Virus record (IMG/VR): IMGVR_UViG_3300026290_000001
DNA length: 64,000 bases
DNA from: a virus
Reading direction: 5' to 3' (one strand)
Numbering within the stretch: the first letter of the stretch is position 1; each line of letters starts with the position of its first letter. The notes below the pieces were generated by a model, which saw only the letters and a list, made by a program, of their open reading frames with translations, was not told where the DNA came from and did no database searches. The position numbers and the translations under genes were made by a program. Shown piece by piece: positions 10,585 through 56,271 of this stretch.

Positions 10585-10667
10585 AATAAAAATTATCATA
10601 AAAGTCTGAATTGGTTTAGAGTTAATAAAAATGAAAAATAAAAATAGGGAGGTATCTAATACATAAA

Positions 10668-11665: not shown

Positions 11666-12370
11666 TTGAAACATATTTTAAGTTTTAGTGGCGGCAAAGA
11701 TTCAACCGCAATGTTACTCATAATGTTAGAGAGAGAATATCCAATAGATGAAATTATATTTTGCGATACTGGTAAAGAATTTCCTGCTTTATATAGACAT
11801 ATTGATAAAGTTGAAGAATACATAAACCAACCTATAACTAGGCTTAAAGGAGAAAAAACTTTTGATTATTGGATGTTCGAACATGAAAAAACCAAAGGTA
11901 AACATTTAGGTAAAAAGGGTTATGGTTGGGCAGACACCAGAGCAAGATGGTGTACAGCATATTTTAAGCGTGAAATTATGAATAAATACATAAAAGAAAA
12001 ATATAATAATGAATATAAAGAGTATGTAGGTATTGCTTATGATGAGTTTAAAAGATATGAGAAAACACAAAATGGTCATAAAAAATATCCTTTAATTGAA
12101 TGGAAAATAACTGAAGGTATGGCTCTAAAATATTGCTATGATAAAGGATTTGATTGGGAAGGAGTATACACACATTTTGAACGGGTATCTTGCTGGTGCT
12201 GCCCTTTAAAAAATCAGAGAGAATTATATATGCTTTATTCTTTCTATCCTGAATTATGGGCAGAACTCAAAGATATGGATAGTAGAGCATGGAACCAGTT
12301 TAAAAGAGATTACAGTGTTCAGGATTTAGAAGATAAATTTAGGGGATGGCAAGACATAATAAAAATATAA
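11666..12370 (+). CDS. PAPS reductase family protein (PP-loop, with C-terminal CC cluster)
   Basis: TTG start after AAGAGGA; PP-loop SFSGGKDS; C-terminal SCWCCP. Confidence 0.7.
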   Translation: MKHILSFSGGKDSTAMLLIMLEREYPIDEIIFCDTGKEFPALYRHIDKVEEYINQPITRLKGEKTFDYWMFEHEKTKGKHLGKKGYGWADTRARWCTAYFKREIMNKYIKEKYNNEYKEYVGIAYDEFKRYEKTQNGHKKYPLIEWKITEGMALKYCYDKGFDWEGVYTHFERVSCWCCPLKNQRELYMLYSFYPELWAELKDMDSRAWNQFKRDYSVQDLEDKFRGWQDIIKI

Positions 12371-12434
12371 ATATTTACTTTCTTTATAGTATGGTGTATA
12401 ATAAATATATCATATCTATATAGGAGGTTAAATT

Positions 12435-12644
12435 ATGAAAACATATAAAACTGAATCAGGAGAAGAATGGTTATATTTTGATGAATGGTTAGTAGAAAAC
12501 AGTTATTATAAATGGAAAAAACAATATGATATTTTAGCAAGTACGGGGACAGATGAAGAAGAAATAGATAGGATTAAAGACGATTTATTAAAACAATTCT
12601 ATGATTTTTGTGAAGAATATGGGTATGTTGGTCAGGAAGTATAA
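12435..12644 (+). CDS. hypothetical protein
   Basis: RBS TAGGAGG then ATG. Confidence 0.45.
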   Translation: MKTYKTESGEEWLYFDEWLVENSYYKWKKQYDILASTGTDEEEIDRIKDDLLKQFYDFCEEYGYVGQEV

Positions 12645-12668
12645 TTTATAATTTTTGTGTTTTACGAA

Positions 12669-12728
12669 CCCCTAAATAATGGGGTTTGTGAAACCAAAAA
12701 TCATGATAAAACTCATCTTTTGTGTTGA
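12669..12728 (+). promoter_or_regulatory. copy of the repeated intergenic module
   Basis: CCCCTAAATAATGGGG hairpin, AAAAATCATGATAAAAC, TTTTGTGTTGA. Confidence 0.35.
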
Positions 12729-12764
12729 TATTAAAATTTAAATATAAGGAGGTAATATTATTAA

Positions 12765-13517
12765 TTGTTTGAATTAAATAAAATATATTGTGTTGATTGT
12801 TTAGAAGGGATTAAAAATATAGAAAGTGGCAGTATTGATATGGTATTTTTTGATCCTCCTTTCAATTTAAACAAAGATTATGGAATTAAAATTAATGATA
12901 ATTTAATAAAAGAAAAATATTTAAACTGGCAGTATGAAATATTAAAAGAATCTATTAGAGTGCTATGTGATAATGGGGCAATAATTTATCATACTATCCC
13001 AAAATGGGCATTTAAAATAGCTAATTATCTTGATGAACAAGGAATGGTTTTTCAAAATTGGATTTGTTGGAATGAATCAGGATCAACACCTACCCCTTCA
13101 AGATTATATCCTAAACATTATCCTATTCTTTGGTTTTCTAAGAATAAACTCAAAACTTTTAATAAACAATATATTCCCATAGAAAGATGCAGAAAGTGCA
13201 ATACTACTATAAAAGATTATGGTGGCAAATTTAAAGATTTAAAAGAAATAGATGGTGAAAAAGTAACTGTTTTAAGTGATGTATGGGACGATATACATAG
13301 AATAAGACATAATAAAAATAAAAATAGAAAATCAAATGAACTTCCCGAAATTTTAATGGAAAGAATAATTAACTTATATTCTAAAGAAAATGATATAATT
13401 TTAGACCCATTTTCAGGTAGTGGGACAACATGTAAAATAGCAAAGAAACTAAATAGACAATATATTGGATTTGAAATTAATCCTGAATACATAAAAATCT
13501 CAAAAGAACGTATTTAA
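12765..13517 (+). CDS. DNA methyltransferase, beta-class (DPPF)
   Basis: TTG start after AAGGAGG; VFFDPPFNLNKDYG and DPFSGSGTT. Confidence 0.8.
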   Translation: MFELNKIYCVDCLEGIKNIESGSIDMVFFDPPFNLNKDYGIKINDNLIKEKYLNWQYEILKESIRVLCDNGAIIYHTIPKWAFKIANYLDEQGMVFQNWICWNESGSTPTPSRLYPKHYPILWFSKNKLKTFNKQYIPIERCRKCNTTIKDYGGKFKDLKEIDGEKVTVLSDVWDDIHRIRHNKNKNRKSNELPEILMERIINLYSKENDIILDPFSGSGTTCKIAKKLNRQYIGFEINPEYIKISKERI

Positions 13518-13598
13518 AACAACAAAATAATATTATTGACGTTGTTGACTTTGTTTGTGAAAATTGATATAATTAATAAAAATGTAGGAGGTATATTT

Positions 13599-13859
13599 AT
13601 GGCAGTACGCAGACAAAGGGCAACAACTAGTGCAGAAATAATGGATAAAGATATTAAAATAGTAATTAAAAAATCAAAAGTTCGCTATAGAAGTGTAGAA
13701 TCAAAATCTCATGGTTTTGTTAATGAATTTTGGATTGAAAAAATTGATGATTTATTTTTTTCAGGAGGTAAAATAAGTGAAGAAAGAATTTATCAACATT
13801 GGAAATTCAACTTTGATAAAAATAAGTGGGAGTGTATAGAAGACAAATCTAAAAATTAA
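13599..13859 (+). CDS. hypothetical protein
   Basis: Track ORF 13536..13859; ATG 13599 after TAGGAGG is the likelier start. Confidence 0.45.
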   Translation: MAVRRQRATTSAEIMDKDIKIVIKKSKVRYRSVESKSHGFVNEFWIEKIDDLFFSGGKISEERIYQHWKFNFDKNKWECIEDKSKN

Positions 13860-13878
13860 TTTAATAAGAAAAATACAA

Positions 13879-13940
13879 ATCCCATTATATCGGACTTCAT
13901 TTTTATAAAAATCATGATAAAACTTGTCTTTTGTCATGAT
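13879..13940 (+). promoter_or_regulatory. copy of the repeated intergenic module
   Basis: ATCCCATTATATCGGA, AAAAATCATGATAAAAC, TTTTGTCATGA. Confidence 0.35.
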
Positions 13941-13972
13941 ATTAAAACAAAAATAAATATGGAGGTTAAAAT

Positions 13973-15394
13973 ATAATTAAATTAAATAAGTTTGCATTAG
14001 TACAATTAACTCCAAAAGATATGCGAAGCCAAGATAGTATAAATTTAGGATTAGAAATTATATCTGAAATAGTTAAAAAACAAGGTTGGCAATTAGATAC
14101 ATATAAATTCGGAGATAAAATTCAAGATGTTAATTCATATGATATTATAGGGTTTAGTTTATTCTATTTTACACAAATGTTAAATTTAGTTCCATTCCTA
14201 AAGAGTAATAATATTAAACCATTAAGTAGTAAAAGAAACAATCAACCACTATTATTAGCTGGCGGTCAAGGTATTCAAAATCCTAAACCAATTAGTAAAT
14301 TTATTGATGTATTTTGTATGGGTGAGGGTGAGGGGGTTTTGGAATATATCTTAGAAAATTATAAAAATAAAAATATTTTATCAAACCATAAGTCTTTGTA
14401 TATACCAAATATAAATGATAATTTTATATTCAACTCAATAAAAGATGTTGATTCTAAACCTATAATTTATGGTAAAAATAGCATGATAGAATTAACGAGG
14501 GGATGTAAAAATAGATGTAAGTTTTGTCAGTATGGATGGACAAATGGTAAATATCGAGAAAAAAACATCGAACTAGTAAAACAACAAATATTAGAGGTTA
14601 AAGATAAAGGCATTAAAAATATTAACTTGTTAAGTTGTAATTTGGGTGGTTATTCTAAGATAAATGAAGTTCTTGATTTTTGTATAGAAGAAAATATTAG
14701 ATTAATGAATACCGATATGAGAATTGACGAATATAGTGAAGAAATAGCTATAAAATTAGACCTACTAAAAGTGAGAACTCTAAAAGTTGGAGTAGAAAGC
14801 TTTTCTGATCAAACACGAATTGGTATTAATAAGAATATTTCAAAAATACAATTAGATACTTTTATTGACAGAGCTTTGAAGCATAATATATCAAATTTAC
14901 ATTTTTATTTAATATACGGACTTCCAAACGAAGAAAACTATAATGAATGGTTTAATTATATGGAATACATAAAAAATAGAATAAAATCTGTTGATAGAAA
15001 TATAAGAATTGAATTTAGTATTACTAATTTTGAACCAGCAATATATACACCCTTTGAAAAAAGTCCTTTAATTAATTTCCAAGACAAGCATAAATTTATG
15101 AGAGAATATTTAATAAAACAAGAAGAATTGGGTTATATAAAACAACCCGCACAAACAAAAGATTATAAAAATAGTCATGGAAGATTAGGCAGAAAAGAAC
15201 GAAGTTATAATATTGGAATGTGGTTACTACATGGGGACGAAACTGTAGGGGATGTGTTATATGAATTAAACATTAAAGGAATAGGTAGGAGTATAAATGA
15301 AAAGATTTATAATCAAATTTATAAAATATGCCAATCAAAAACTGATGTTTATCAAATAAGAAACATTCAAGATTTAAATGAAAATATATGGTGA
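13973..15394 (+). CDS. B12-binding-domain radical SAM protein; probable ATA start
   Basis: CX3CX2C radical SAM motif (GCKNRCKFCQ); upstream GEGEG-containing B12-binding-like segment; frame opens at 13970; ATA 13973 is 7 nt after GGAGG; track ATG 14021 has no RBS. Confidence 0.7.
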   Translation: MIKLNKFALVQLTPKDMRSQDSINLGLEIISEIVKKQGWQLDTYKFGDKIQDVNSYDIIGFSLFYFTQMLNLVPFLKSNNIKPLSSKRNNQPLLLAGGQGIQNPKPISKFIDVFCMGEGEGVLEYILENYKNKNILSNHKSLYIPNINDNFIFNSIKDVDSKPIIYGKNSMIELTRGCKNRCKFCQYGWTNGKYREKNIELVKQQILEVKDKGIKNINLLSCNLGGYSKINEVLDFCIEENIRLMNTDMRIDEYSEEIAIKLDLLKVRTLKVGVESFSDQTRIGINKNISKIQLDTFIDRALKHNISNLHFYLIYGLPNEENYNEWFNYMEYIKNRIKSVDRNIRIEFSITNFEPAIYTPFEKSPLINFQDKHKFMREYLIKQEELGYIKQPAQTKDYKNSHGRLGRKERSYNIGMWLLHGDETVGDVLYELNIKGIGRSINEKIYNQIYKICQSKTDVYQIRNIQDLNENIW

Positions 15395-15402
15395 TGTCCA
15401 TG

Positions 15403-15460
15403 CCTATAAATTGGGATTCTCAACACTCAAAAACATGATAAAACTAGTTTTTGGTCATGA
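15403..15460 (+). promoter_or_regulatory. copy of the repeated intergenic module
   Basis: CCTATAAATTGGGATTC, AAAAACATGATAAAAC, TTTTGGTCATGA. Confidence 0.35.
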
Positions 15461-15470
15461 AATTAAATGC

Positions 15471-15499
15471 TTGACAAATATTAATTAAAATAGTAATAT
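15471..15499 (+). promoter_or_regulatory. sigma-70/sigmaA-type promoter upstream of the ligase gene
   Basis: TTGACA (15471-15476), 17-nt spacer, TAATAT (15494-15499); RBS GGGAGGAAGG; ATG 15526. Confidence 0.5.
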
Positions 15500-15525
15500 A
15501 AAGATACTGCGAAGGGAGGAAGGTT

Positions 15526-17397
15526 ATGAGTGAAATAGAAAATCTCAAACAACAATTAGATTACCATGATGATTTGTATTACAATCAAGACGATCCTGAA
15601 TTATCTGATGTGGAATATGATGCTTTAAAACAAGAATATCTTAATTCAGTTAATCAACAAGAATACAACTATATACCTGGGCAAGCACAATTTAAAAAAT
15701 TCACACACACATTCCCTATTAAATCATTGGGGAAAATAAATACTATTGAACAAGCAAGAAAAGAAATTGAAAGGTTATATCCAGTAGTTATTGAACCTAA
15801 ATATGATGGATTAACCTTAGTGTTATATGGTGAAGGGAAAGTAGTAACTAGAGGTAGTGGTCAAATCGGAGAAGATGTTACTGCAAATGCTTCTAGATTT
15901 ATGCGTACTTATAATCCATATGGTTTACCTATTCGTGGCGAAGCAATTATGCCTATATCAGTGTTCCATGAAATTAACAAACAAAGGGATGTAGAAGGTA
16001 AGGAATTATTTAAAAATCCAAGAAATGCAATAGCAGGTATTCTTAGAAATAAAGATAATAGTAATATCCCTAAAGGGTTAAGATTTATTGCTTATGAAAT
16101 CGTAGGATCAGCAGAATCCCATATTCAACAATTATTAGAACTTAAAAAATACTATGATATACCTGAAGCAGATACTATTTGGAATTATAGTGAAATTGAT
16201 GATGCAGTAAAATTCATAGAAAACTTTGATCGTTCTAAATTAGATTATGAAATTGATGGATTAGTTATTAAATCTAATAAGACAAATGCATTAGATATTT
16301 TTGGTGAAACTGAACATCATCCGAACCATAGTGTTGCCTACAAGTTTCCTTCTCAGGGAGAATGGACTGTATTAAAATCTATAACTTGGCAAACTGGTCG
16401 CACGGGCAGAATTACCCCTGTGGCAGAATTGGAACCAGTAGATATTATGGGAAGTACAATCGAACGTGCTACATTGCATAATATAGGGTATATTAGTGGT
16501 TTAGATTTACAGCTATATGATAAGGTGTTTTTAGTGAAAAGTAATGATATTATTCCCGCTGTGATTAAATGTGAGCATACTAAAAATAGTAAACCTATTG
16601 AAATTATAAACAAGTGTCCTTCATGTGGAAGTGAATTAAAAATTATCAATGATCAATTATTCTGTATTAATGATGATTGTTTGGCAAAATTATTATATAG
16701 AACTTCTCATATGGTTAGTCGAGATGCCCTTAATATAGATGGTCTTAGTGAGCAAACCATTTTAAAAATGATTGAAGCAGGATATATTAATAAACCTTGG
16801 GATATATTTGATGTTACTGAAACAGAAATATTAAAATTAGATGGTTTTGCAAAGAAATCTGCCAAAAAAATATATGAAAATATTCAAAATGCAAGAAATT
16901 GTGATTTTGATAGAGCAATTTACGCTTGTGGAATTGAACTGATAGGCAGAAAGGTTAGTAAAGATATTGCAAAAGAATTTGAGACTATTGATAATTTGTT
17001 ATATTGTTTAAGACGTGATGATGCTAGAAGTATATTAGGTATGATTGATGGTATTGGTAATACCACTATAGATAGTTTATTGAATAACGTTAATATTTTA
17101 GAAAATATGGTGGATTATTTAAGTATTAGTAGTGTTGAAAAGAAAGAAACAACTTTTAAATCTCTTGAAAATATTACATTTGTAGTTACCGGAAATGTAG
17201 AAACATTTAAAAACCGTAAAGAGTTAGAAGAATTGATCACTTCTCTTGGTGGTAAGTTAAGTGGATCAGTTTCAAGTAAAACTAATTATTTAATCAACAA
17301 CGATATTACCTCCAATTCTGGTAAGAATAAAAAGGCAAACGAATTAGGGGTAGAAATTATTAGTGAAATACGATTTAATGAAATGATAGGTAGGTAA
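15526..17397 (+). CDS. ligA: NAD-dependent DNA ligase (LigA type)
   Basis: Adenylation motif KYDG (EPKYDGLTL); Cys4 zinc finger (CPSCGSEL…C…C); C-terminal BRCT-like region; 623 aa. Confidence 0.85.
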   Translation: MSEIENLKQQLDYHDDLYYNQDDPELSDVEYDALKQEYLNSVNQQEYNYIPGQAQFKKFTHTFPIKSLGKINTIEQARKEIERLYPVVIEPKYDGLTLVLYGEGKVVTRGSGQIGEDVTANASRFMRTYNPYGLPIRGEAIMPISVFHEINKQRDVEGKELFKNPRNAIAGILRNKDNSNIPKGLRFIAYEIVGSAESHIQQLLELKKYYDIPEADTIWNYSEIDDAVKFIENFDRSKLDYEIDGLVIKSNKTNALDIFGETEHHPNHSVAYKFPSQGEWTVLKSITWQTGRTGRITPVAELEPVDIMGSTIERATLHNIGYISGLDLQLYDKVFLVKSNDIIPAVIKCEHTKNSKPIEIINKCPSCGSELKIINDQLFCINDDCLAKLLYRTSHMVSRDALNIDGLSEQTILKMIEAGYINKPWDIFDVTETEILKLDGFAKKSAKKIYENIQNARNCDFDRAIYACGIELIGRKVSKDIAKEFETIDNLLYCLRRDDARSILGMIDGIGNTTIDSLLNNVNILENMVDYLSISSVEKKETTFKSLENITFVVTGNVETFKNRKELEELITSLGGKLSGSVSSKTNYLINNDITSNSGKNKKANELGVEIISEIRFNEMIGR

Positions 17398-17400
17398 AAT

Positions 17401-17640
17401 ATGAACGATAAAATCTATATTATACCTAGAGAAGATAAACCAATAAAATTCATTATTGAAGAATTACCATGTCCTATCTGTTCACAAATTGGATATGATT
17501 TTAGATGTGAACATGCCAAAAGTAGTTTTAAAGATTTAATATATACAATATCTTGTACTAATTTTAATCATTGTGAAAATGCAGAGAATATATCATTGAA
17601 ATTCAATGAGTTAATACAAGATGAGTTGTTAACCACTTGA
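17401..17640 (+). CDS. hypothetical Cys-rich protein
   Basis: ATG immediately after the ligase stop; CPICSQ…CEH…C. Confidence 0.45.
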   Translation: MNDKIYIIPREDKPIKFIIEELPCPICSQIGYDFRCEHAKSSFKDLIYTISCTNFNHCENAENISLKFNELIQDELLTT

Positions 17641-17950
17641 CAGATTAGTAAAATAAATATATAATAAAATTACAACAAAATATCAAAAATATCAATTTTA
17701 CAAATCCCAATATATAGCCATTCTTGAAGGTGAAAATCAACACCAAATCTGCGTTTTGTCACAACTTTTATGAATGCTAATATACAGGGCTTGAGAATTG
17801 CTATTTTAAGCGAAAATACGGTAAAATCAATGGTTTTAAGTAATTACTAAAATTAGCTTTACATAAAGTCCAATATATAGGCGTTTATAATTCTAAAAAT
17901 CGTGACAAAAGTGTCATTTTGTTTAGAAATTATAGAAAGGGGAATTAAAT

Positions 17951-18136
17951 ATGGATAAAAATTTTTTATTGCTTTGTTCATATGAGAATATGGAAGGAAT
18001 GCTAGAAAGAGATTTTGAATGGTATCAAACAGAAGAAAACATGAGAGAAAGCATTGAAGATAAAAAAGAATTTATAAAAGATTTTACGGTCAATAAAGCA
18101 ATAGAAATATTACAAGTTAGAAATATAGAAATATAA
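17951..18136 (+). CDS. hypothetical protein
   Basis: RBS AAAGGGGAA then ATG. Confidence 0.4.
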   Translation: MDKNFLLLCSYENMEGMLERDFEWYQTEENMRESIEDKKEFIKDFTVNKAIEILQVRNIEI

Positions 18137-18192
18137 TTTAAATAATAAACCTTAGTAATAAAAACATTAAAAGGAGATGAATTATACATAAT

Positions 18193-18951
18193 TTGATTGA
18201 ATTGAATAAAATTTATAATGAAGATTGTATAGGTGGAAGGGGTATGTGTTTAATCCCAAATGAATCAATCGATATGATTTTATGTGATCTTCCGTATGGA
18301 ACTACGATGGCGAAATGGGATAAGATTATCAACCAAGAAGAATTGTGGACGCAGTATAGAAGGATAATTAAACCCAGAGGGGCAATTGTACTAACTTCTA
18401 GTCAGCCATTTTCAAGTGCTTTAATATATAAAAACCTAGACATTTATAGGCATTCATGGGTTTGGGAAAAGAACAATTCTGCAGATTATGCCAATGCAAA
18501 TTGTAGACCAATGAAAATACATGAGGAAGTATTGGTATTTTCATTCGCACATGATGTTGCTCCTGCTAAAGTAAAGATGATTTATAATCCACAGGGGCTA
18601 ATACCAGTTAATAAGCCCAATCGGAGAGGTAGACATAGTGAAACAACAGGTCATTTTAGAGAGAATGAGTACATACAAAAATACACAAACTATCCTACTA
18701 CAATATTGAGGTTTGCTTCAGATAAAGATAAAATTCACTCTACACAAAAACCTGTGGCGTTGTTTGAATATCTTATAGAAACATATAGTAATGAAGGTGA
18801 TTTGGTTTTAGATAATTGTATAGGCTCAGGCACAACAGCGATTGCGTGTATAAACATCAAACGTAAATTTATAGGGTTTGAAAATGACAATACATATTTT
18901 GAGTTAGCAAACAAAAGAATAGAAGAACATAAATGTAAAATAAATATTTGA
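18193..18951 (+). CDS. DNA methyltransferase, beta-class, motif IV variant DLPY
   Basis: TTG start after AAAGGAGA; MILCDLPYGTT; TQKP; DNCIGSGTT. Confidence 0.75.
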   Translation: MIELNKIYNEDCIGGRGMCLIPNESIDMILCDLPYGTTMAKWDKIINQEELWTQYRRIIKPRGAIVLTSSQPFSSALIYKNLDIYRHSWVWEKNNSADYANANCRPMKIHEEVLVFSFAHDVAPAKVKMIYNPQGLIPVNKPNRRGRHSETTGHFRENEYIQKYTNYPTTILRFASDKDKIHSTQKPVALFEYLIETYSNEGDLVLDNCIGSGTTAIACINIKRKFIGFENDNTYFELANKRIEEHKCKINI

Positions 18952-19212
18952 CATTTAACCACAAACAGTATATAATAAAATTACCAGCAATATGCATCAA
19001 AAATATTAAAAATTTGCTTTTTACAAATTCCATTATATAGGTATTTATCAATACCCACAAAGCCCGATATATTGGGATTTTTACAAAAACATTACCAAAA
19101 ACAAATTTGGTCATGATTTTAAATTTGTCTTATATAAATTCAATATATAAGAATTTATTTTAAAATAAATTGCTGAGTTGAAATACGAAAGAAAGGAGGA
19201 AATACATAAAGT

Positions 19213-43856: not shown

Positions 43857-44216
43857 TTATCTAACTTGTTCTTTCCATGCATTTCCAAATTGCTTTTTCA
43901 ATGTTTTTAAAGACGATTCAATTAAAATTTGAATTTCACTTTCAGTTAAAGCAATACCTTTTTTATTCAACATTTCCGATAAAGCAATAAATGCTTCTCT
44001 ATATTTAGTTTGACCATCAACATCTTTAAAACTCTTTTGAACATATAAAACTGCAAGTCTAGCTAATTCTTGATTAGTCTGAATTTCATGATCAATCTTT
44101 TTAAGATTCTCTATACCTAATTTTTTCTTTAAAAGTGCAATTATAAAATATGAAAAAATCAATCCTATGATATACATAATATTTAAAAATAATTCACTAA
44201 TGATTTGATTATCCAT
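43857..44216 (-). CDS. membrane-anchored protein at the end of the lysis cassette (holin-like)
   Basis: Single N-terminal TM segment then charged domain; directly downstream of the endolysin. Confidence 0.4.
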   Translation of the reverse strand: MDNQIISELFLNIMYIIGLIFSYFIIALLKKKLGIENLKKIDHEIQTNQELARLAVLYVQKSFKDVDGQTKYREAFIALSEMLNKKGIALTESEIQILIESSLKTLKKQFGNAWKEQVR

Positions 44217-44236
44217 ATGTAACCTCCCTCTACCCT

Positions 44237-44953
44237 CTACTTCTTCAATTCTTTAAGTAAATATTCAACGGCATTATCAATTAAAACAGCACATTCTATT
44301 CGTGTAATACTACTATTAGGATCTAAAATCCCATCGCCTTTACCAGAAAGTATTTTCTTCTCATATAATCTATCTGCACTTTTTGCTCCCCAATGATCTT
44401 TAGGCAAGTCTTTAAAATACTTTGACATTTCTTCAATCACCTTACCTTTCAACAATTCCTTCTGAACTTCATTTTTAAATTTATCCCATGTCCAACCTAA
44501 ATGACCTGCTCTTATTAAACGTGGACAATTTTTTCCATTCCAATCCCAATGCTGTCTTAATGATTCTACATTTTTATTTTTAGATTTTAATAATTCTGCC
44601 ACAAGTAAAACTGCATTTTCTAATGTTTTTTGGTAATTCCCACTTTCACATATTTCAATTCCTATACTACGTCTATTACCAGCACCACTTCCTCCATCTC
44701 CTGCGTGCCAAGCATTTTCAAATAAAGGAATACATTCAATTGCTTGTTTTTCATCAATGGCAATATGATAACCTGTAGAAGATGTATTTGAAGGATTGGT
44801 TAAATAATCTCTTTCATTTCTTGCAGTAGATTTTGAATTCCCTGTGTTGTGAATAGTAATATATTCCCAATCCATTTTATATTTTGGACGTTTATTAGAA
44901 TTCATAGGAATGTGATCTATTACATAAGGAAAAGGTAAATTAAATTTACTCAT
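44237..44953 (-). CDS. endolysin: N-acetylmuramoyl-L-alanine amidase (Amidase_2/PGRP) with C-terminal SLH-like domain
   Basis: ITIHNTGN … HIAIDE … AWHAGDG … CPRL; C-terminal GKGDGILDPNSSITRIECAVL. Confidence 0.8.
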   Translation of the reverse strand: MSKFNLPFPYVIDHIPMNSNKRPKYKMDWEYITIHNTGNSKSTARNERDYLTNPSNTSSTGYHIAIDEKQAIECIPLFENAWHAGDGGSGAGNRRSIGIEICESGNYQKTLENAVLLVAELLKSKNKNVESLRQHWDWNGKNCPRLIRAGHLGWTWDKFKNEVQKELLKGKVIEEMSKYFKDLPKDHWGAKSADRLYEKKILSGKGDGILDPNSSITRIECAVLIDNAVEYLLKELKK

Positions 44954-45217
44954 TTATTTTTCACCACCTTTAACTAATCTCTCAATAAAGTCCGTTCCAG
45001 CATATCCAACGGTAATAAAAACTATCATTATCAACTTGCTTGTTTCAACACCTAGTAAGGCAATAGCAGTTATAGTCCCAATAGCACAACTTACCAATAA
45101 ACTTATAAATATTTGAGGTAAACTTTTATTGTTATTTACAACCATTCGTAAGACTTGACCTGCCATTCCTAAGATTGCACCTAGCAAAATAAATGATTGA
45201 ACTTCAAAAATATTCAA
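44954..45217 (-). CDS. holin
   Basis: 87 aa, two to three TM segments, charged C-terminus, immediately upstream of the endolysin. Confidence 0.55.
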   Translation of the reverse strand: MNIFEVQSFILLGAILGMAGQVLRMVVNNNKSLPQIFISLLVSCAIGTITAIALLGVETSKLIMIVFITVGYAGTDFIERLVKGGEK

Positions 45218-45239
45218 TTTACCACCTCAGAATTAAAAA

Positions 45240-45536
45240 TTAAATACTAGGAATATTGTCATTATCATCCAAAGTATTTATATCATTTATATTATTACTA
45301 TAATCAGGTTTATCAGGCCAAGTATTATGTTTACTTAAATTTTCAAATAATGATTTTACACAATAAATTAATGTCACTCCGATTATTTGAATGACGATTT
45401 TTTCTGAAAGATTTTCAGCAATTTGTTCTCTTCCTAGAAAGGCCAATAAATAAGAAAGATAAACCCAAATTACGCTGTTAATCATTAATAAATAAACTAT
45501 TCTTTTGCTAAATTCATCTATGTTAAATATTTTCAT
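45240..45536 (-). CDS. hypothetical membrane protein
   Basis: Hydrophobic segments. Confidence 0.4.
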   Translation of the reverse strand: MKIFNIDEFSKRIVYLLMINSVIWVYLSYLLAFLGREQIAENLSEKIVIQIIGVTLIYCVKSLFENLSKHNTWPDKPDYSNNINDINTLDDNDNIPSI

Positions 45537-45547
45537 AACTCACCTTC

Positions 45548-45772
45548 TCACAAACGTATTTGTTGATGACAACTTGGACAATGTTCAATAGGTGAAGCAG
45601 GATAAGTTATTATATAATAAATAACCCATAAAATTACTAATAACCAAAACAATGGAGAACGAATAATAGTTGATAATATATTCCAAACTAAAAACAAGAT
45701 ACCTTGAATAAAAGATGTAGTTATATCTGTTATGTTATTAAAAAATATATCTACTTTGTTTTTATATTTCAT
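45548..45772 (-). CDS. hypothetical membrane protein
   Basis: Two TM segments; C-terminal CPSCH. Confidence 0.4.
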   Translation of the reverse strand: MKYKNKVDIFFNNITDITTSFIQGILFLVWNILSTIIRSPLFWLLVILWVIYYIITYPASPIEHCPSCHQQIRL

Positions 45773-45779
45773 AATCTAC

Positions 45780-46361
45780 CTACTTTAAAACCATACTTAT
45801 CACTGCACCAAATCCCATAGACATTGCAATTATAAATAAATTCTTTAAAATATCTGATAATTTTATTTTATTATCACCACTTACTTCATCAATCTTCTTG
45901 CTTAATTTCTCCACACTAACTTCTGTACTGTTCATTCTATTGCTTAGTACGTCTAATGAATTACTGATCTTCGCTTGATTTTCACTAATTTCAGCAATCA
46001 ATTTATCTCTTTTAATTCCGTCTTCTCTCTGTAATTTTGTGAGCAATTGGAGTTCGGACAAAACACTTGTAATATCATATATTTTGTTTGTTTGGCTTTC
46101 CAAATCATCTATACGGTGATTTGCCACCTTTATTTTTTCATCAACATTCTTAAATACTTCGGCACAAATTTTTGGTTGTTCACATTCTTGATTTATGACC
46201 AATTCACAACACCATCCAATCTTTGTATTCATTCCTCCTTTGCGGTATAATGGGTACAAGGTAATTAATTTGACCGCAAAATTAATTACCATAACGAATA
46301 AGGCAGGATACCTATTTTTATCCTGCCTTATTTTTATTTTATTAAATTTAAAAAATCTCAA
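45780..46361 (-). CDS. coiled-coil protein with C-terminal membrane anchor
   Basis: Heptad-rich middle; C-terminal hydrophobic IIAMSMGFGAVISMVL. Confidence 0.45.
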   Translation of the reverse strand: MRFFKFNKIKIRQDKNRYPALFVMVINFAVKLITLYPLYRKGGMNTKIGWCCELVINQECEQPKICAEVFKNVDEKIKVANHRIDDLESQTNKIYDITSVLSELQLLTKLQREDGIKRDKLIAEISENQAKISNSLDVLSNRMNSTEVSVEKLSKKIDEVSGDNKIKLSDILKNLFIIAMSMGFGAVISMVLK

Positions 46362-46456: not shown

Positions 46457-47461
46457 TTATTGATAGAAATATTGAGTATAACTTTGTTGCTTGTGTTCAA
46501 ACGTTTGTTTTGCGTAAATGCCCGTAGTTTGAATATCATCATGACCTAAAAGTTCTTGTAATACCGACATTGGACAACCGTTATTTAGCATCAAGGTTGC
46601 GAAAGTATGTCTGAGCATATGGGGATGAGTTCTCTTGTCAAGCCCTGCACGTTTACCTATTGCTGCTATTTCTCGTTGAATACCTCGATTGCTTAATCTT
46701 CTATATTCCTGCCGTTCTGTTACAAATAATGCTTCACAGTCATCCTTACGACTTTCAAGATATTTTTTAAGGTAAATTGCAGCTCTAGCAGAATAGAATA
46801 CAATTCGCTCTTTGTTTCCTTTGCCTAATACCTTAATCGTCCGATTTGATTGTCCTATATCATCTTTATTTAGTGCCGATATTTCAGATAATCGACAACC
46901 TGTTGAATACATAATTTCAGTTAATGCTTTTTCTCGCAAAGTGAAACAACTTTCACGGAATAGTTCCAATTCTTCAATTGTTAATGCCTTTGCCATTGCT
47001 TTTCCCACTTTATAAGGTTTAATTCTAATCATCGGATTTTCTTCAATAATCTGTTCCTCACAAAGCCATTCAAAGAAACTGCGAAGTACTGAGCGAATTG
47101 TCTCAACAGTACTTTTAGCATTTACTGTTGGGTCGCTTTCCCGATCATCCAGATAGTTAATTATGTCCTGCTTGGTTATTTCATTTACTGGTTTTTCTTC
47201 GGTTCTATCGGTAAATATTTTAAGATGAAGTCGATAATTATCAATAGTTATTGGACTTAATCCTTGCCGTTTTTTATCCTTCAAAAACAGTTTTATGTTT
47301 TTCCGCAAATTATAATATTCTGGATCGCTGTTTTGTTTTATAACTCTGTATTCATCAAGAATGGAGGCTAATTGATTTTTAGCCTCCATCTTATTCATGC
47401 CTTTTTCTATGATTCCATCTACAATTTTAGCATATAGCTCATAATTGAGATTAGGGTGCAT
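46457..47461 (-). CDS. tyrosine site-specific recombinase (integrase), XerC/D-like
   Basis: Catalytic signature RLSE … HPHMLRHTFAT … LGHDDIQTTGIYA; 334 aa. Confidence 0.85.
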   Translation of the reverse strand: MHPNLNYELYAKIVDGIIEKGMNKMEAKNQLASILDEYRVIKQNSDPEYYNLRKNIKLFLKDKKRQGLSPITIDNYRLHLKIFTDRTEEKPVNEITKQDIINYLDDRESDPTVNAKSTVETIRSVLRSFFEWLCEEQIIEENPMIRIKPYKVGKAMAKALTIEELELFRESCFTLREKALTEIMYSTGCRLSEISALNKDDIGQSNRTIKVLGKGNKERIVFYSARAAIYLKKYLESRKDDCEALFVTERQEYRRLSNRGIQREIAAIGKRAGLDKRTHPHMLRHTFATLMLNNGCPMSVLQELLGHDDIQTTGIYAKQTFEHKQQSYTQYFYQ

Positions 47462-47729
47462 AGAATACCTCCTTTTATTTAGTTGTTACTGAAGGTTCAT
47501 AGTCTACTGCGAAGTAACTTCTTAATACACATTTGCGAAGTCAGAAAACTTTTTAACCAATATCAAACAACCCCGACAATTTCTCTAACTTTTTCCCTAT
47601 ACATATTAGGCACAAAATCAATTATAATTCGCCCACTTTCTACTGCATATACCCACATTCCTAATATAGCTTCACTCATATCATTCATCTCCTTTTAGAT
47701 TAAACAATTCGGTTCTTAACATATCGATT

Positions 47730-47962
47730 TCAGCCATCATCAAAGTGAGTAGAAGTGCTATTCCTTCTGCATCTTCGTTGAAAGCCAACTTCGATATAGT
47801 CATTCTTGTTGAACACTTGCTCATCATATTCCCAACCACTAAACCCCTTCATGGCGTCAATATCTTCTTCCTCAATTCGCACTATATTCGTCCGAACATA
47901 GACTGTATCAGCATTCACTTCAATGGGCTTAACTGTTTCCTGTGTCCCTCTTATTCTCACGC
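47730..47962 (-). CDS. small hypothetical protein
   Basis: GTG 47960 after AAAGAGGTGA; composition differs from the flanking AT-rich DNA. Confidence 0.3.
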
Positions 47963-48035
47963 TTTATCACCTCTTTATAGTATTTTCCTTGATAGGCTTC
48001 TATTCGACCCATTCGACCAATTACCACTGTTATTA

Positions 48036-49187
48036 TTAAAAATACACGAGGCGAGCGCCGATAACCGAATACTTTTCAGACTCCGAATAACCCACATGCA
48101 GCCGAAACGCCCCCGCCTTATCCGCAGCCGACCAATCACCACCGAAACGCGGCAAGCGCGAAACATTCAGAACCGCGGAATCGGGATAATGCGTGCTTTC
48201 GCTTCCGTTTGCTGTTTTGACGATAAAACCCGTTTCCGTACCACCTTGTATGTCGTCTATGTAACCGACTATATTCGTTGTCGCACCCTGTCCGTAATTT
48301 GTATATCCAGAACCAATATCGTTAAAACTTTCATTGCCGATTAGGATGTTTCGGTCTGCATCACTAAATAATCCGTCAATCCAATAGTAAATATTACCCC
48401 AAAAATCTTCTATGCCACAAAATTTTAATTGTTGTTTTCCTGTAGTTTCACCATAGAACATACCTTTAGCATTTGTAGCACCCGTATTAACTTTGGCACT
48501 ATTCCCATCGACATAACCTCTGCCTAAAGCAGTTTGCCAATCCCTACTCTTAAACATCACCGTACCTAAGACTTGCAACATTAAAAGTTGAAAATAAGCC
48601 ATTTGGTCATAACCACTGCCATTCGCCTGTGCAATAGTTCTAAATGCACCGATAGTTTCATAAGCGGTTGTTATTTTTCCGCTTAAACTTCTTAATTTAG
48701 AACCGTCAGAATATCCTAAATAAGCTGAAATGTAACACTTGGCTTTTTCGGTTGTACCCCTCATATGTGCTAAACATTTATACCCACTATCTACCTTTGC
48801 ATTAGCATATCTTACATACAAGTCAGTCCCAATGGTTTCAAATTTCCACCAAATCTTAGGAAATTCAATCATTACGTCACCATCTGCACCACTTGTAATG
48901 TCTGCATTTGTCCCGTCAATTTTTTTAGTATAATCGTTTGGATTTAGATAGTATTGCACCACTCCATTTTTAAGTAAACATGGTTTAATCTGATTAAATG
49001 GAAACTTGTCTTGCCAACTACCATAAGAAAAATTGCCATTATTTCCTTGGGCTGGAGTAAAACCTATTGCATTATCTGTATAGGCTAAAGCAGTTTCGGG
49101 GTTGCTATTTGTAGTATCAATTTTGATGCCATATATTTTAGGTGGTGATTTTACTGGTTTTCTTTTCCTAATTAATGCCTCACCCAT
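48036..49187 (-). CDS. tail fibre / receptor-binding protein with compositionally distinct (GC-rich) C-terminal domain
   Basis: 383 aa, Gly/Ser/Thr/Asn-rich; last ~100 codons (48040-48330) are 50-60% GC. Confidence 0.5.
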   Translation of the reverse strand: MGEALIRKRKPVKSPPKIYGIKIDTTNSNPETALAYTDNAIGFTPAQGNNGNFSYGSWQDKFPFNQIKPCLLKNGVVQYYLNPNDYTKKIDGTNADITSGADGDVMIEFPKIWWKFETIGTDLYVRYANAKVDSGYKCLAHMRGTTEKAKCYISAYLGYSDGSKLRSLSGKITTAYETIGAFRTIAQANGSGYDQMAYFQLLMLQVLGTVMFKSRDWQTALGRGYVDGNSAKVNTGATNAKGMFYGETTGKQQLKFCGIEDFWGNIYYWIDGLFSDADRNILIGNESFNDIGSGYTNYGQGATTNIVGYIDDIQGGTETGFIVKTANGSESTHYPDSAVLNVSRLPRFGGDWSAADKAGAFRLHVGYSESEKYSVIGARLVYF

Positions 49188-50030
49188 TTACCTCACCACC
49201 TTTAGCTGAATTGGCAAACTAACTTCAGGTTTATCCATCGCATATAATGTTATAGAATTATTAGCAGTTGTTACACGATAAATTTTACCCCACTCATTTA
49301 CTCGTTCTTTATCTGTAGCAAATGTGCCACTCATTACTACGTCAACTATAGGATTGTCATTTGACGATATTCCAGTTACCGTTTGCGTTTTCGTATATGG
49401 GGCTTCTGTACCTGTCCAAGTAGTATCAAGTGTTGTCGTAAGCGTAGCGTGATATACGTGTCCTAATTTACTTATTGTCGCACCATCTGCCAGATGGTTA
49501 GCAAACTTTTTCCCAACCCCACTAACCAAAGGTCTTTTATCGACAATTATATTTACAGTTTTATCCGCATTTGTACTAATAGTACCAATTAATAGACTTC
49601 CATCTGTAATTGTTCCATCTATACTACTAGCAAAATTTCCATCATTTTTAAGATATATAGTATAGGTTATACTGGCCGATACTGGATTAATAGTAAAAGT
49701 TGTATCAGATGTTTTAGTTATAGTATTTATTGTATTTCCACTAAATGTTTCACCAGTACCACTAGCAATAACTATACTTAATGTATCTGTACCACTCGTA
49801 TAAAATGCAGATTTTATTCTAAATGGACTATCCAATTCTAATGAATTTAATAAAAATCTCGCATCTTTCCATGTTGCTCCTAAATCTCTAGGATCAGTAC
49901 CACCTAAAGTAACATTTGCATCATCAGCAACATGGATAATATCTAAACCACTATATTTATTTCTAATTTCTGCTACTTGCTCATCTGTATGTATAGCAAA
50001 TACTTTGCTATTTTTAATTACACAAATCAT
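49188..50030 (-). CDS. tail fibre protein sharing a module with the upstream tailspike
   Basis: Thr/Ser/Asn-rich; ~110-aa segment (TLSIVIASGTGETF…ISTNADK…DKRPLVS) paralogous to 50050..51813. Confidence 0.5.
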   Translation of the reverse strand: MICVIKNSKVFAIHTDEQVAEIRNKYSGLDIIHVADDANVTLGGTDPRDLGATWKDARFLLNSLELDSPFRIKSAFYTSGTDTLSIVIASGTGETFSGNTINTITKTSDTTFTINPVSASITYTIYLKNDGNFASSIDGTITDGSLLIGTISTNADKTVNIIVDKRPLVSGVGKKFANHLADGATISKLGHVYHATLTTTLDTTWTGTEAPYTKTQTVTGISSNDNPIVDVVMSGTFATDKERVNEWGKIYRVTTANNSITLYAMDKPEVSLPIQLKVVR

Positions 50031-50049: not shown

Positions 50050-51813
50050 TTACACTATTATCCATGAACCTTTATTTCCCTCAGAATTAGGTTCAGGAGA
50101 GAAAATAGGACTGCCACTATAATTAGAACAACGTACATATCCATTGTTATATGCAAATATATCAATTAAACCTGCATCACCAACATTAGAATTTGAAGCA
50201 AATAAAGAACCTTCTTCACAACAATCTATATTGTATTCCACATTGTTTTTTGCAATAATTCCCGAACTAAATCCTTTTCCACCATTATTAACTGTTAATC
50301 CTGATTTATTTCCACAAACACATATATTTTCTGCCATCATACCCCCACCAGTAGAATCATAAGCACCTTTTTCAGAATTACCATTTGCTATACAATTATT
50401 TATATAAATCCCTGCGAAATTGGAACATTCATAACCATTTTCATTATTGGAAGATGCTGTATATGGTGCAGTAATACCTGCTCTGTTAGTTACAAAAAAA
50501 CCAGATTTAAAACCAGATACTCCAACATTTGTACCACAAGTTATGCTTGCGCCTGTTGTTGATAATATTCCATAATTAGTACTAGCATTAGAACCAATAA
50601 TTGCAACATTATTTAATAATCCTAATTCAGAACGGTCAGCAACAATACCATTACAATTTGTAAATTTTAACGTTGTAGTTAAAACAACAAAATCTCCACC
50701 CGTTAATGCAACAGCAGGGAATGGAGTACCTTGAAAAGTATTTTTAACCGTTACTACGTTTCCATTTATATTTATAATTTCATACATTCCACGTAAAACT
50801 TCATGATTACCTGTGCCTGTAGTATTTTTTATAATAGCATATTGTCCTACTTGCATACCTACTGCACTAGCAACTGTTATAGGTACAGACCAATTTCCAG
50901 CAGTATCAGAAACACTACCTACGTTTGAAACGGTTGTGGCAATAGGAGTAGCACCAATTATTCTTATATTAGAACCATTAACATGATTTATTTTAAGTTG
51001 AGAAGTATGTTCATACATTTCTGTTAATAAAGAAATAGTTACAGTAGTTGAACTAGTTATACTAGCAGTTTTTATACTATCTAAAGCATTTGGTATTGTA
51101 GTAAAATCACATCCAGTAGAGCCAACAGTTATAGTTTTATTGGCATCTATAATAGTATCTGTTAAATGTTTAATAAATTCACTACCTACAGCACTAACTA
51201 AAGGTCTTTTATCAGTAATTGTATTTATAGATTTATCTGCATTGGTACTAATTGTTCCTATTAAAATACTTCCATTTGGAATACTACCATTTGTACTTTT
51301 ATCAAAATTACCATCATTCTTTAAATAAATATTATAGGTCACGCTAGCACTTACTGGATTAATATTAAAAGTAGTATCAGATGTTTTTGTAATAGTGTTT
51401 AAAGTAGTACTATTAAAACTTTCACCTGAACCCGAAGTAATTATTATTGATAAAGTATCTGTTACTGAATTATATTCAGCAGATTTTATCTGAAACGGAT
51501 ACCCATATACATCTTCTACATTACTTTTTAAACTATCATGATCATATGCTGTAAATAATCTTCCTATTATCGTTCCATTACTCCATGTCTGTGCTGTCCC
51601 TTGAAATCCCCTAGTTACACCAACCAAACTACTACCACTTTTATCTGTATATAAAATAGTTTCTGCATTATTACCAGTTCCTATAGTAGCAAGATTAGGT
51701 GCATTGGGAAAAACTGAAATATCAGTTACGGGGATGGTAGTTGCAATACTATTTATATCAGAAGAAAGTGTTGTAAGAGGGGAGTTAATTTTAGCATTAT
51801 ACATTGTTTCCAT
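50050..51813 (-). CDS. tailspike/tail fibre with beta-helix-like Gly/Asn-rich repeats (possible depolymerase)
   Basis: 587 aa; C-terminal half rich in short N/G/S/V repeats typical of right-handed beta-helix. Confidence 0.5.
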   Translation of the reverse strand: METMYNAKINSPLTTLSSDINSIATTIPVTDISVFPNAPNLATIGTGNNAETILYTDKSGSSLVGVTRGFQGTAQTWSNGTIIGRLFTAYDHDSLKSNVEDVYGYPFQIKSAEYNSVTDTLSIIITSGSGESFNSTTLNTITKTSDTTFNINPVSASVTYNIYLKNDGNFDKSTNGSIPNGSILIGTISTNADKSINTITDKRPLVSAVGSEFIKHLTDTIIDANKTITVGSTGCDFTTIPNALDSIKTASITSSTTVTISLLTEMYEHTSQLKINHVNGSNIRIIGATPIATTVSNVGSVSDTAGNWSVPITVASAVGMQVGQYAIIKNTTGTGNHEVLRGMYEIININGNVVTVKNTFQGTPFPAVALTGGDFVVLTTTLKFTNCNGIVADRSELGLLNNVAIIGSNASTNYGILSTTGASITCGTNVGVSGFKSGFFVTNRAGITAPYTASSNNENGYECSNFAGIYINNCIANGNSEKGAYDSTGGGMMAENICVCGNKSGLTVNNGGKGFSSGIIAKNNVEYNIDCCEEGSLFASNSNVGDAGLIDIFAYNNGYVRCSNYSGSPIFSPEPNSEGNKGSWIIV

Positions 51814-54448: not shown

Positions 54449-55741
54449 TCAGTCATGAGATGAATTGGCTCTGTTCTGTTCATATATAATCCATGATTTT
54501 CTTGCATTAATTCTTTGCATGTTAGATATTTTCGGTGTCTTCATACCTCTGGGTGCATTACTAAAATCTATTTTTTCACCATCTATACCCATAAGAATGG
54601 CATAACCCGTAGACATTCTACCTTTAATAAAATATTCATTACCTATATACCTTACTTTATCAAACTTCCTAAATCCTTCTATTTTACCTGTAGGTATCTT
54701 CTGATGACTTCTTACTCCTTTTGCCTGTTGGTAATCGCCTTTAGGGATACACTTTTTTAATACAGCTTTTTCAGTTTTAAAGCTTACATCAATTAACCCT
54801 ATATCTTCAATATTATTTAAACAGGCAATAGCTACAGCATCGTAGTAATGCTCTTTTGGTAATCCCATTAGCTGTCTATGTTCTTTGGTAATAAATCCAA
54901 AGGTTTCTTTTGCATTTGGTAGCTGTCTTAATAATTGTTGTCTTATACTATTCATCTGTGTTGTGTGTTTTAATTGTCCTTTAATTTTACCATTCTTCTT
55001 TAATTTAATTCCTCCTTTGTGCAAACTATTATGACAAGTTTTACAAAGTGTAATTAAATTTTCTGCATCATCTGAGCCACCATTTTTTCTAAAAACTATA
55101 TGATGTACCTCTAATCTGCTGTCTTTACTTTTTCCTTTGCAATACTGGCAAATATATTTATCTCTACTTAATACATAAGCTTTAGTATTAGCAAATCCAT
55201 AATTAGTTCCTTTTTGATAAAGCCATTTATTACTTAATACTGCTGGATTTTTTAAAGCATGTGGGTCAAATGTTGCTGTTTCTATTATTATATTTGTAAT
55301 GGGCATTATTGATTTTGCAAAATCAATTTCTTTTAAGTGTGAATTAATTTTACTTGTCATTGTAGGAGAAAATCTATCTTTTTTAATGCTGTTTTTCCTA
55401 TTATTAAATCTAGGTTCCCTATATCTAGTTTTCCTATTCCTTCTAGTTCTCCTATATTTAGCTCTTTTGTCCATTTTGTCAGATATATCATTTCTAATTT
55501 CTACTTCTGATATATAATACACTTCATTTTCGTCATTTGCTACTGCACTTCCTATTTTACTACTACCAGTATCAATTCCTAAAGTTAAATCTTGTGTATA
55601 GTCTGTAGCATGATATAGTAATTTAATTGTAAATGGAGTTCTTCTTATGCATTTTGCTTTACCATCTTTTAACAATAATCTTGCTATTGCTGGTTTACAA
55701 GGCATTAAAGGACTCCCATCTTCATTAATTACATAAACCAT
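54449..55741 (-). CDS. iscB: IscB, OMEGA-family RNA-guided endonuclease (PLMP domain, split RuvC, HNH)
   Basis: PLMP (EDGSPLMPCKPAIARLLLKDGKAK); RuvC-I LGIDTGSSKIGSAV; RuvC-II IIIETATFD; HNH CQYCKG…HHIVFRKNGGSDDAENLITLCKTCH; RuvC-III PKEHYYDAVAIAC; 430 aa; RBS AAAGGA. Confidence 0.8.
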   Translation of the reverse strand: MVYVINEDGSPLMPCKPAIARLLLKDGKAKCIRRTPFTIKLLYHATDYTQDLTLGIDTGSSKIGSAVANDENEVYYISEVEIRNDISDKMDKRAKYRRTRRNRKTRYREPRFNNRKNSIKKDRFSPTMTSKINSHLKEIDFAKSIMPITNIIIETATFDPHALKNPAVLSNKWLYQKGTNYGFANTKAYVLSRDKYICQYCKGKSKDSRLEVHHIVFRKNGGSDDAENLITLCKTCHNSLHKGGIKLKKNGKIKGQLKHTTQMNSIRQQLLRQLPNAKETFGFITKEHRQLMGLPKEHYYDAVAIACLNNIEDIGLIDVSFKTEKAVLKKCIPKGDYQQAKGVRSHQKIPTGKIEGFRKFDKVRYIGNEYFIKGRMSTGYAILMGIDGEKIDFSNAPRGMKTPKISNMQRINARKSWIIYEQNRANSSHD

Positions 55742-56025
55742 AAAATCAAATCCTTTCGGATAAATACTCTGCTTAAAAGCAGGTTATGCGTATCTATATA
55801 CTATTACCATATATAGAATTCGTCCTCATCTCGACAATGATAAAATAGCTTATATGTATATCACACCGAGCCTTACCCTCCAACTCTACTTAGTGATATA
55901 CGATAGAGCAATGGTCTGATGCGTCAACCAAAGGTATCATAACTATTCTATCGTAGTATAAATTTCTCTATACTAAGTCTGGTGAACTTAGACTTTAGAA
56001 GCCTCCGACTTTAGTCGGGGGTAGT
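55742..56025 (-). ncRNA. candidate omegaRNA of the IscB locus
   Basis: ~280-nt non-coding stretch directly 5' of iscB; GC well above surroundings; nested inverted repeats (GTGAACT…CCGACTTTAGTCGG…AGTTCAC at 55982-56030; GTATATCAC/GTGATATAC; CTGCTTAAAAGCAG). Confidence 0.4.
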
Positions 56026-56271
56026 TCACTCTATTTCAGGATTGATAGATAAATCATCTTTGCTTGTACTATTTACATTAGATAAATTATCTTCATTGGA
56101 CAAATCATCATTAATAATTTGACTTAATTCGTCTATTTTAGAACTTAATTTGATAATCTCTATCTGATACATATTATTTTGTAAACATAAAGTGACTACA
56201 TCTAAGGGCAAATTACTATTGTTTATTAACTCTGCCAGTTTAATATTAAAATCACTTATAATAAAAATCAC
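56026..56271 (-). CDS. hypothetical protein
   Basis: 81-aa ORF; overlapping plus-strand ORF 56192..56539 is hydrophobic low-complexity and less plausible. Confidence 0.35.
   Translation of the reverse strand: MIFIISDFNIKLAELINNSNLPLDVVTLCLQNNMYQIEIIKLSSKIDELSQIINDDLSNEDNLSNVNSTSKDDLSINPEIE

Follow-up and report, generated by a model that had tools for sequence, protein, structure and literature searches.

The 3' end of the tail protein gene described here is very probably (we put the probability at about 0.87) the variable region (VR) of the target gene of a diversity-generating retroelement (DGR) whose diversifying core, with its template repeat (TR) and reverse transcriptase (RT), has since been deleted. 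The phage is an SPbeta-like siphovirus of ~135 kb with YomG, YomF, YomN and XepA domains, and the window which we analysed is a stretch of 64 kb of its genome. We observed the composition of the block, its homology to intact cassettes, the site-specific substitutions, the stumps of both TR and RT, the invariance among assemblies and the fold of the protein, and all of them point to past DGR activity in this lineage. In the scenario we propose, the RT of an ancestor would have copied an A-rich template repeat lying just downstream of the tail gene, with misincorporation at the template adenines (mostly A to G), and the cDNA would have replaced the last ~147 nt of the tail gene. Successive rounds would have depleted the VR of adenines, a depletion which in a 28%-GC genome would produce a GC-rich, A-poor block starting exactly at the VR boundary. 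One or several later deletions, amounting to ~1.2-1.3 kb in total, would have removed the VR-TR spacer together with the greater part of the TR and almost the entire RT gene, leaving a single VR variant fixed. The tail protein itself has stayed intact and presumably serves to bind a receptor with a specificity that is now fixed, with no helper acting in trans as far as the genomic data suggest. The features concerned are listed below; the recombinase gene is given as a neighbour of the scar and is not claimed as a member of the DGR.

48036..49187, minus strand: tail protein gene, 383 aa, the probable DGR variable (target) protein
48186-48294, minus strand: GC shoulder preceding the VR, with a GC of ~0.46 and a normal A content
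48039..48185, minus strand: VR, 49 codons, the core of the GC anomaly
48047..48060, minus strand: GC-rich, putatively IMH-like 3' element of the VR, CGGCGCTCGCCTCG, with 12 of 14 bases G or C
48010..48034, minus strand: TR stump, 25 nt, AATAACAGTGGTAATTGGTCGAATG
47986-48009: interval of ~24 nt between the TR and RT stumps
47929..47985, minus strand: C-terminal stump of the RT, its last 18 codons, KYYKEVIKRENKRDTGNS*
47681..47960, minus strand: small conserved ORF which comes after the RT in intact cassettes, matching phrog_18126 and the ORFs of relatives
46457..47461, minus strand: tyrosine recombinase gene (Pfam Phage_integrase, E 3e-41), adjoining the scar

A GC-rich and adenine-poor block in the tail gene

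An earlier note, made from the sequence, had drawn attention to an abrupt GC-rich segment at 48040-48330, and this anomaly was fully borne out: sliding windows place the region highest of the 64 kb, with a GC of 0.491 against a window mean of 0.279 (sd 0.040, 291-nt windows). The top 291-nt window of the whole 64 kb lies at 48005-48295 and reaches 0.505, while the runner-up, an unrelated stretch, attains only ~0.40. Both GC-rich motifs quoted in that note were found again, at 48051-48067 and 48099-48117. The figure of ~28-30% GC which it gave for the sequence elsewhere does not hold for the remainder of the tail gene, which at 0.36 (GC3 0.26) itself stands somewhat higher than the genome average. 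Nor is there a sharp edge near 48330: the change-points, placed by maximum likelihood for A content and GC separately, fall instead at 48186 for A content (0.354 to 0.115, LR 39) and at 48294 for GC (0.355 to 0.523, LR 23). The anomaly comprises two tiers, the core at 48039-48185 and a milder shoulder which extends upstream in the gene to ~48294, and dividing the minus-strand gene by codons gives the following composition:

Codons 1-285 (48333-49187, minus strand): GC 0.36, GC3 0.26, A 0.35
Codons 286-334 (48186-48332, minus strand): GC 0.415, GC3 0.347, A 0.36
Codons 335-383, the core (48039-48185, minus strand): GC 0.565, GC3 0.571, A 0.12

The core is a 147-nt block which is GC-rich through a specific lack of A on the coding strand. 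GC3 averages 0.176 ± 0.052 across the genes of the window, and in the core it is raised (0.57) to the same extent as GC1 and GC2, so that the GC there must have more than amino-acid composition behind it. The shoulder is of a different nature. It is found in all the relatives described below (in L020 the GC rises by steps from 0.38 to 0.49 to 0.58, and the others are similar), and because it is common to them and its A content is normal, we consider it a family property of a conserved Gly/Thr/Ala-rich stretch, lying outside the mutagenised block. Adenine mutagenesis leaves unexplained both this shoulder and the mildly raised GC3 of the cassette (0.31 in the tail gene and 0.39 in the next small ORF, against 0.18 in the genome); the latter may be a weaker foreign signal for the cassette as a whole, the relatives coming mostly from Bacillaceae and Clostridia with a GC of 30-40%.

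Intact cassettes in relatives and the adenine signature

Several relatives carry the gene within a complete DGR. In Psychrobacillus phage Perkons a reverse transcriptase (ORF175) comes next after the homologue (ORF176), LoVEphage is arranged alike, and in three IMG/VR relatives (L020, L021 and L022), whose proteins are 67-70% identical to that of our phage, the RT lies ~300 nt downstream. In Perkons and these three relatives, the VR is formed by the last 137-154 nt of the gene, the TR begins 173-222 nt downstream of the VR start, and the VR has a GC of 0.49-0.56 against 0.30-0.42 for its own TR. The mismatches between the two repeats are distributed as follows:

Perkons: 32 of 32 VR/TR mismatches at TR adenines
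L020: 33 of 34 at TR adenines
L021: 26 of 27 at TR adenines
L022: 29 of 30 at TR adenines

The DGR of Perkons (MT325768) consists of a VR at 5859-5995, a TR at 6081-6217 and an RT at 6381-7457; in the 2026 paper characterising this phage, the terms reverse transcriptase, DGR, diversity-generating and retroelement are all absent. We extended the comparison to a survey set of 58 cassettes having a clean VR/TR pair adjoining a family RT. The mean GC was 0.537 for the VR, 0.385 for the TR and 0.392 for the locus, the mean A fraction was 0.106 for the VR and 0.300 for the TR, and the GC of the VR exceeded that of both its own TR and its own locus in all 58 pairs. The spectrum at TR adenines comprised 937 changes from A to G, 312 from A to T and 187 from A to C: as the adenines of an A-rich template are replaced mostly by G, a GC spike follows arithmetically.

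The VR of our phage bears the same signature. It aligns codon for codon with the VRs of L020, L021, L022 and Perkons, and its start as placed by homology (48185) coincides with the change-point in A content (48186). It is A-poor (0.12 versus 0.35 upstream) and its divergence is concentrated at template-A sites: where the three closest templates share a non-A base the VR matches it at 51 of 62 sites (82%), whereas it retains A at 11 of the 35 sites (31%) where all three have A (Fisher p = 8e-7). These 35 sites now hold 15 G, 11 A, 5 C and 4 T, and the base spectrum at the changed ones is the same as in the relatives. Restoring A at the 35 sites lowers the GC of the VR from 56.5% to 43%, and restoring it at all 60 sites which have A in any relative brings it to 31%, within the range of the family templates. 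Because the excess of G+C falls on template-A sites and the templates of the relatives are AT-rich, the composition appears to have been made in place by DGR adenine mutagenesis.

The earlier note had proposed another origin, in which a receptor-binding domain, encoded by the C-terminal ~100 codons, was acquired by recent recombination from a source of higher GC, a phage or a bacterium. The segment is the strongest compositional outlier of the window and GC3 is raised over the whole cassette, and a certain modularity is hinted at by the PHROGs matches, of which phrog_13914 is confined to residues 17-328 and phrog_2889 to the last 41 residues. Such an acquisition is nevertheless very improbable, since homologues from distant phages, and the nearest one at 70% identity as well, are collinear with the protein to its last residue, and the nucleotide identity to the relatives stays level along the gene, with no step at the 3' end. 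Moreover, the spike recurs in AT-rich relatives beside their own AT-rich template, ~175 nt away. Finally, a foreign domain predicts neither an adenine-specific deficit which begins exactly at the VR boundary, nor a G+C excess lying on positions where the family templates have A, nor the remains of a template and an RT which adjoin the gene downstream.

A block of this kind could also have arisen with no DGR history at all, through amino-acid or structural constraint on a Gly/Ala/Arg/Ser-rich lectin tip or through a stable structure of the 3' mRNA or DNA. This would suit the shoulder before the VR, which is rich in Gly/Thr/Ala codons and common to the relatives, and also the fact that some homologues devoid of a DGR likewise end moderately GC-rich. 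We regard it as the least probable of the alternatives, because the substitutions relative to the family templates are adenine-specific and the TR and RT stumps directly attest to a former cassette.

The scar and the search for a template elsewhere

DGR adenine mutagenesis, as the preferred reading, is supported by what lies immediately downstream of the tail gene. The TR stump, which was found through comparison with the relatives and had been missed by blastn and by an A-tolerant 60-mer scan, aligns without gaps to VR positions 48149-48125 with 17 identities and 8 mismatches, all 8 of them at adenines of the stump. No alignment as good was obtained from 1000 shuffles or from 993 genomic control windows, and the stump also gives a 19-nt blastn match of 94.7% to the TR of L022. 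The RT stump matches the RT C-termini of L020 (KYYKEVIKIEKGKRDNAGS*), L021 and Perkons, and at the nucleotide level blastn finds 85% over 47 nt to L020 and 78% over 90 nt to L021. In intact cassettes, the small ORF comes after the RT and overlaps it. Here, its N-terminal part (47730-47960, 76 aa) matches phrog_18126 and the 79-91-aa ORFs which come after the RT in L020, L021 and L022, while its C-terminal part (47681-47839) is in another frame, with the break near GACTATATCGAAGTTGG; the ORF is apparently frameshifted in this phage, and its sequence is identical in all the assemblies compared. On the opposite strand, a 199-aa ORF (47745-48344, plus strand) covers the VR, the stumps and the small ORF in antisense. 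We take it to be most probably a shadow ORF, because an A-poor coding strand makes a T-poor antisense strand, in which stop codons are rare.

Compared with L020, ~1.2-1.3 kb are missing from the cassette, comprising the distal TR and almost the whole RT; the VR-TR spacer and the first ~36 nt of the TR are missing too. Since this spacer and the TR start have also been lost, and the stump lies nearer to the stop codon than the TR of the relatives does, more than one deletion is implied. The sequence of the scar junction is identical in all the loci compared (five assemblies as seven loci, made by several assemblers), so it is not an assembly artefact. The tyrosine recombinase gene that adjoins the scar is missing at the same position in the relatives.

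The loss of the core is not confined to this phage. We counted 46 genomic homologues with enough flanking DNA: 18 of them have an RT plus a TR, 21 have neither and 7 are ambiguous. The closest genomic homologue, at 70% identity, is L109 (NZ_JAENWM010000003.1, 3501-4619, Clostridium sp. MAG), which has a VR with a GC of 0.57 and an A content of 0.11 without any TR, RT or stumps; another relative, L023, from a 146-kb contig, is also DGR-less and has a VR with a GC of 0.43. The junctions of both differ from that of this phage, which argues that the core was lost repeatedly and independently. The presence of L109 in a Clostridium sp. MAG gives a hint as to the host of the phage group.

Some DGRs have remote targets, and the VR might still be diversified by a cognate TR and RT acting in trans from elsewhere in the ~135-kb genome, from the host or from a co-resident phage. 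In the window, blastn and the A-tolerant 60-mer scan found no second copy of the VR, only its match to itself, and no RT was seen, either as an ORF by a YxDD motif scan or as a tblastn match with two DGR RTs; within 10 kb past either end of the window there is no RT gene. Thus, the 18-codon C-terminal stump is all that the window and the 10 kb on either side encode of a DGR-clade RT. We then recoded each VR base as itself or A, a 'base-or-A' pattern which, as a positive control, retrieves the Perkons TR from the Perkons VR. In a 40-nt form, for which the 17 positions that the stump confirms served as anchor, it matches the VR alone, once in the window and once per locus of this phage, and the pattern likewise matches the VR alone in each of two IMG/VR contigs, which cover ~113 of the ~135 kb; over this length the 25-nt stump is the only sequence that matches the VR save at adenines. 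In the metagenome contigs the pattern had 0 matches, the VR itself being missed as well.

The VR is, furthermore, static. We compared the gene in seven assemblies (ENA ERZ27268616, ERZ764845 and ERZ27268605; JGI 3300009671, 3300009647 and 3300026194; Logan SRR5007707). Active DGR targets show many template-A differences between genomes. Here, the tail gene differs by 0-4 nt at the consensus level, three of the four sites that vary are upstream of the VR, and the VR itself has the same sequence in six of the seven assemblies and carries a single synonymous change in the seventh, with no hypervariation at template-A sites at the consensus level. This invariance is one of consensus assemblies, several of them probably from related bioreactor samples, in which low-frequency variants are invisible.

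Diversification still operating in trans would agree with the coverage of the scan (~113 of ~135 kb) and with the GC-rich, IMH-like 3' end which the VR has kept. It is nonetheless very unlikely, given that deletion has removed the TR and RT of the cassette itself in situ, that the few changes between assemblies lie elsewhere in the gene or are synonymous, that no cognate template was found in 113 kb and that none of the best 80 of the 446 family RTs in IMG/VR lies on the contigs of this phage. The VR-TR spacer is gone as well, and in BPP-1 this spacer holds a required hairpin (PMC3240598). The IMH-like element deserves a comment here. The 14-mer CGGCGCTCGCCTCG is analogous to the (GC)14 of the BPP-1 IMH (PMC3240598), and a near-identical sequence, ATCGGCTCTCGCC, closes both the VR and the TR of LoVEphage; by this analogy, it may have an IMH-like function. 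The requirement for a GC-rich IMH at the 3' end of the VR and a hairpin or cruciform downstream is known only for BPP-1 (PMC3240598). We saw no convincing hairpin 3' of the VR in this phage or its relatives, and the post-stop spacer of the relatives is missing here.

Because the IMH-like end has been kept and the VR is 82% identical to the templates at non-A sites, one could also imagine that the orphan VR is re-diversifiable in trans by a co-infecting relative, or by a host element, with a compatible TR-RT. This is a speculative and very improbable idea. If it were true, DGR cores would be shared or 'borrowed' diversifiers among co-infecting phages, and their recurrent loss (in this phage, in L109 and L023 and in 21 of the 46 genomic homologues) would be a stable cheating strategy and not decay.

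The tail protein, known systems and the surrounding genes

Pfam has no family for the tail protein (48036..49187), and a profile search of PDB sequences gave nothing significant. Over its whole length it matches phrog_5302 ('tail protein', E 1e-74), and it was recognised by fold comparison only, as having a C-type-lectin/FGE-type fold. Its homologues aligning to the last residue come from Psychrobacillus phage Perkons, a Clostridioides phage, Butyrivibrio phages, hankyphage-like Bacteroides phages, crAss-like phages and an archaeal virus. Among viral DGR targets tail proteins predominate, and the domains which bear the VR systematically have a C-type-lectin fold (PMC8144416). The protein of our phage has its VR at the C-terminal end of a C-type-lectin/FGE-type fold, and its orthologues in Perkons, L020, L021 and L022 are demonstrably DGR targets. 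From this homology and fold, a receptor-binding role is suggested, and the GC-rich segment is plausibly the ligand-binding tip of the tail protein and a determinant of host range. The earlier note had anticipated such a determinant, and this part of its proposal remains reasonable for a lectin-type tip, whereas the foreign origin to which it was tied does not.

One of the known systems closest to the locus is the Mtd-type DGR of Bordetella phage BPP-1. Both have the VR at the 3' end of a tail receptor-binding gene, a variable domain of the C-type-lectin type, a GC-rich 3' end of the VR and adenine-specific substitutions, which for our phage are seen in its relatives. BPP-1 possesses the target, TR, RT and adenine-specific mutagenic retrohoming, whereas TR and RT are deleted here. 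Another difference is the lack of an Avd-like gene in the VR-TR interval, which even in the intact relatives is only a spacer of 23-81 nt. The fold is nearest to that of TaqVP, the variable protein of the Thermus aquaticus DGR (PDB 5VF4), and not to that of Mtd; the sequence identity to TaqVP is only 14-17%, and TaqVP is cellular, while the protein described here belongs to a phage tail and differs from it in the N-terminal part. Among phages, Perkons and L020-L022 have a homologous target (44-70% identity) and the same small ORF after the RT, and Perkons is, like our phage, a large siphovirus (137 kb, several integrases). They have kept their TR and RT, and their VR and TR differ at 26-33 adenine sites, whereas our phage has only the stumps.

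Decay of the kind proposed here has a precedent in Nostoc all3226, for which a remnant of TR-VR homology persists with no RT; such remnants were read as the result of removing the diversifier once a good variant had been selected (PMC7517822). That locus too is an orphan variable protein with traces of a template. Known DGR remnants such as all3226 are cellular regulatory proteins, whereas here we deal with a phage tail protein of which both breakpoints are recognisable, and which has independent parallel losses in its relatives L109 and L023. DGRs, lectin-fold targets and DGR remnants were already known, and what is added here is a decayed member in an undescribed phage lineage. If our reading is correct, an abrupt switch to GC-rich, A-poor sequence where a tail gene of an AT-rich phage reaches its 3' end marks DGR mutagenesis and not horizontal transfer, and this compositional mark outlasts the deletion of the retroelement. 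It would provide a simple, RT-independent flag for present or past DGR targets which RT-centred finders miss. It would also pinpoint the residues which set receptor specificity in a ~135-kb SPbeta-like phage of anaerobic-digester Clostridia, and constitute a clean case of a phage receptor-binding protein evolving by 'diversify, then lock in', with both breakpoints visible.

Several other features were noticed in the region. The recombinase at 46457-47461 sits in the late region, between the tail gene and the lysis genes, and a second tyrosine recombinase lies just before the tape-measure gene (2438-3475 of locus L014); these two late-region enzymes are only distantly related, with 25% identity in the catalytic part. 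Perkons was reported to have four integrases (PMC13245101). An invertible tail-fibre switch of the Gin/Cin or shufflon type was considered and rejected: between 45.5 and 50.5 kb neither significant inverted repeats nor alternative 3' cassettes were seen, and the neighbouring recombinase, 0.6 kb from the tail gene, is of the tyrosine type. The two genes 5' of the tail gene (280 aa and 587 aa) share a 300-nt repeat (49485-49784 versus 51157-51456, minus strand, 75% identity), which encodes an N-terminal module common to both (…SIVIASGTGETFSGNTINTITKTSDTTF…) and suggests duplicated or modular tail-fibre proteins. Further along, a HEARO RNA (Rfam RF02033) was found at 55819-56029 on the minus strand, with 121.7 bits for a gathering score of 83, and directly downstream of it lies the gene of a 430-aa protein with RRXRR and HNH domains (54449-55741, minus strand); the combination points to the insertion, midway through the tail-gene module, of an IscB-type nuclease and its omega-RNA.

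At the other end of the window, at least 14 DNA methyltransferase genes form a same-strand array over ~1-19000 and 10 kb further upstream (loci L008 and L009). They are of the N6_N4_Mtase, MethyltransfD12, Dam and MT-A70 types, several are paralogous, and DNA repeats of 82% occur at 3501/8515; the array looks like a large anti-restriction methylation island. An intergenic repeat of ~74 nt is present in eleven copies on the plus strand, at 4318, 7132, 9313, 12660, 13861, 15392, 17686, 17849, 19009, 43775 and 46360, most of them between methyltransferase genes. Its core is a palindrome, AAATCCC-AATATATA-GGGATTT, followed by AAAATCATGATAAAA...TTTTGT, and one copy is changed in both arms in a compensatory way (AACCCC...GGGGTT). 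Two copies in the same orientation bracket the lysis cassette (43857-46361), the second one abutting the recombinase gene, and the repeat could be an operator/promoter, a terminator or a recombination site.
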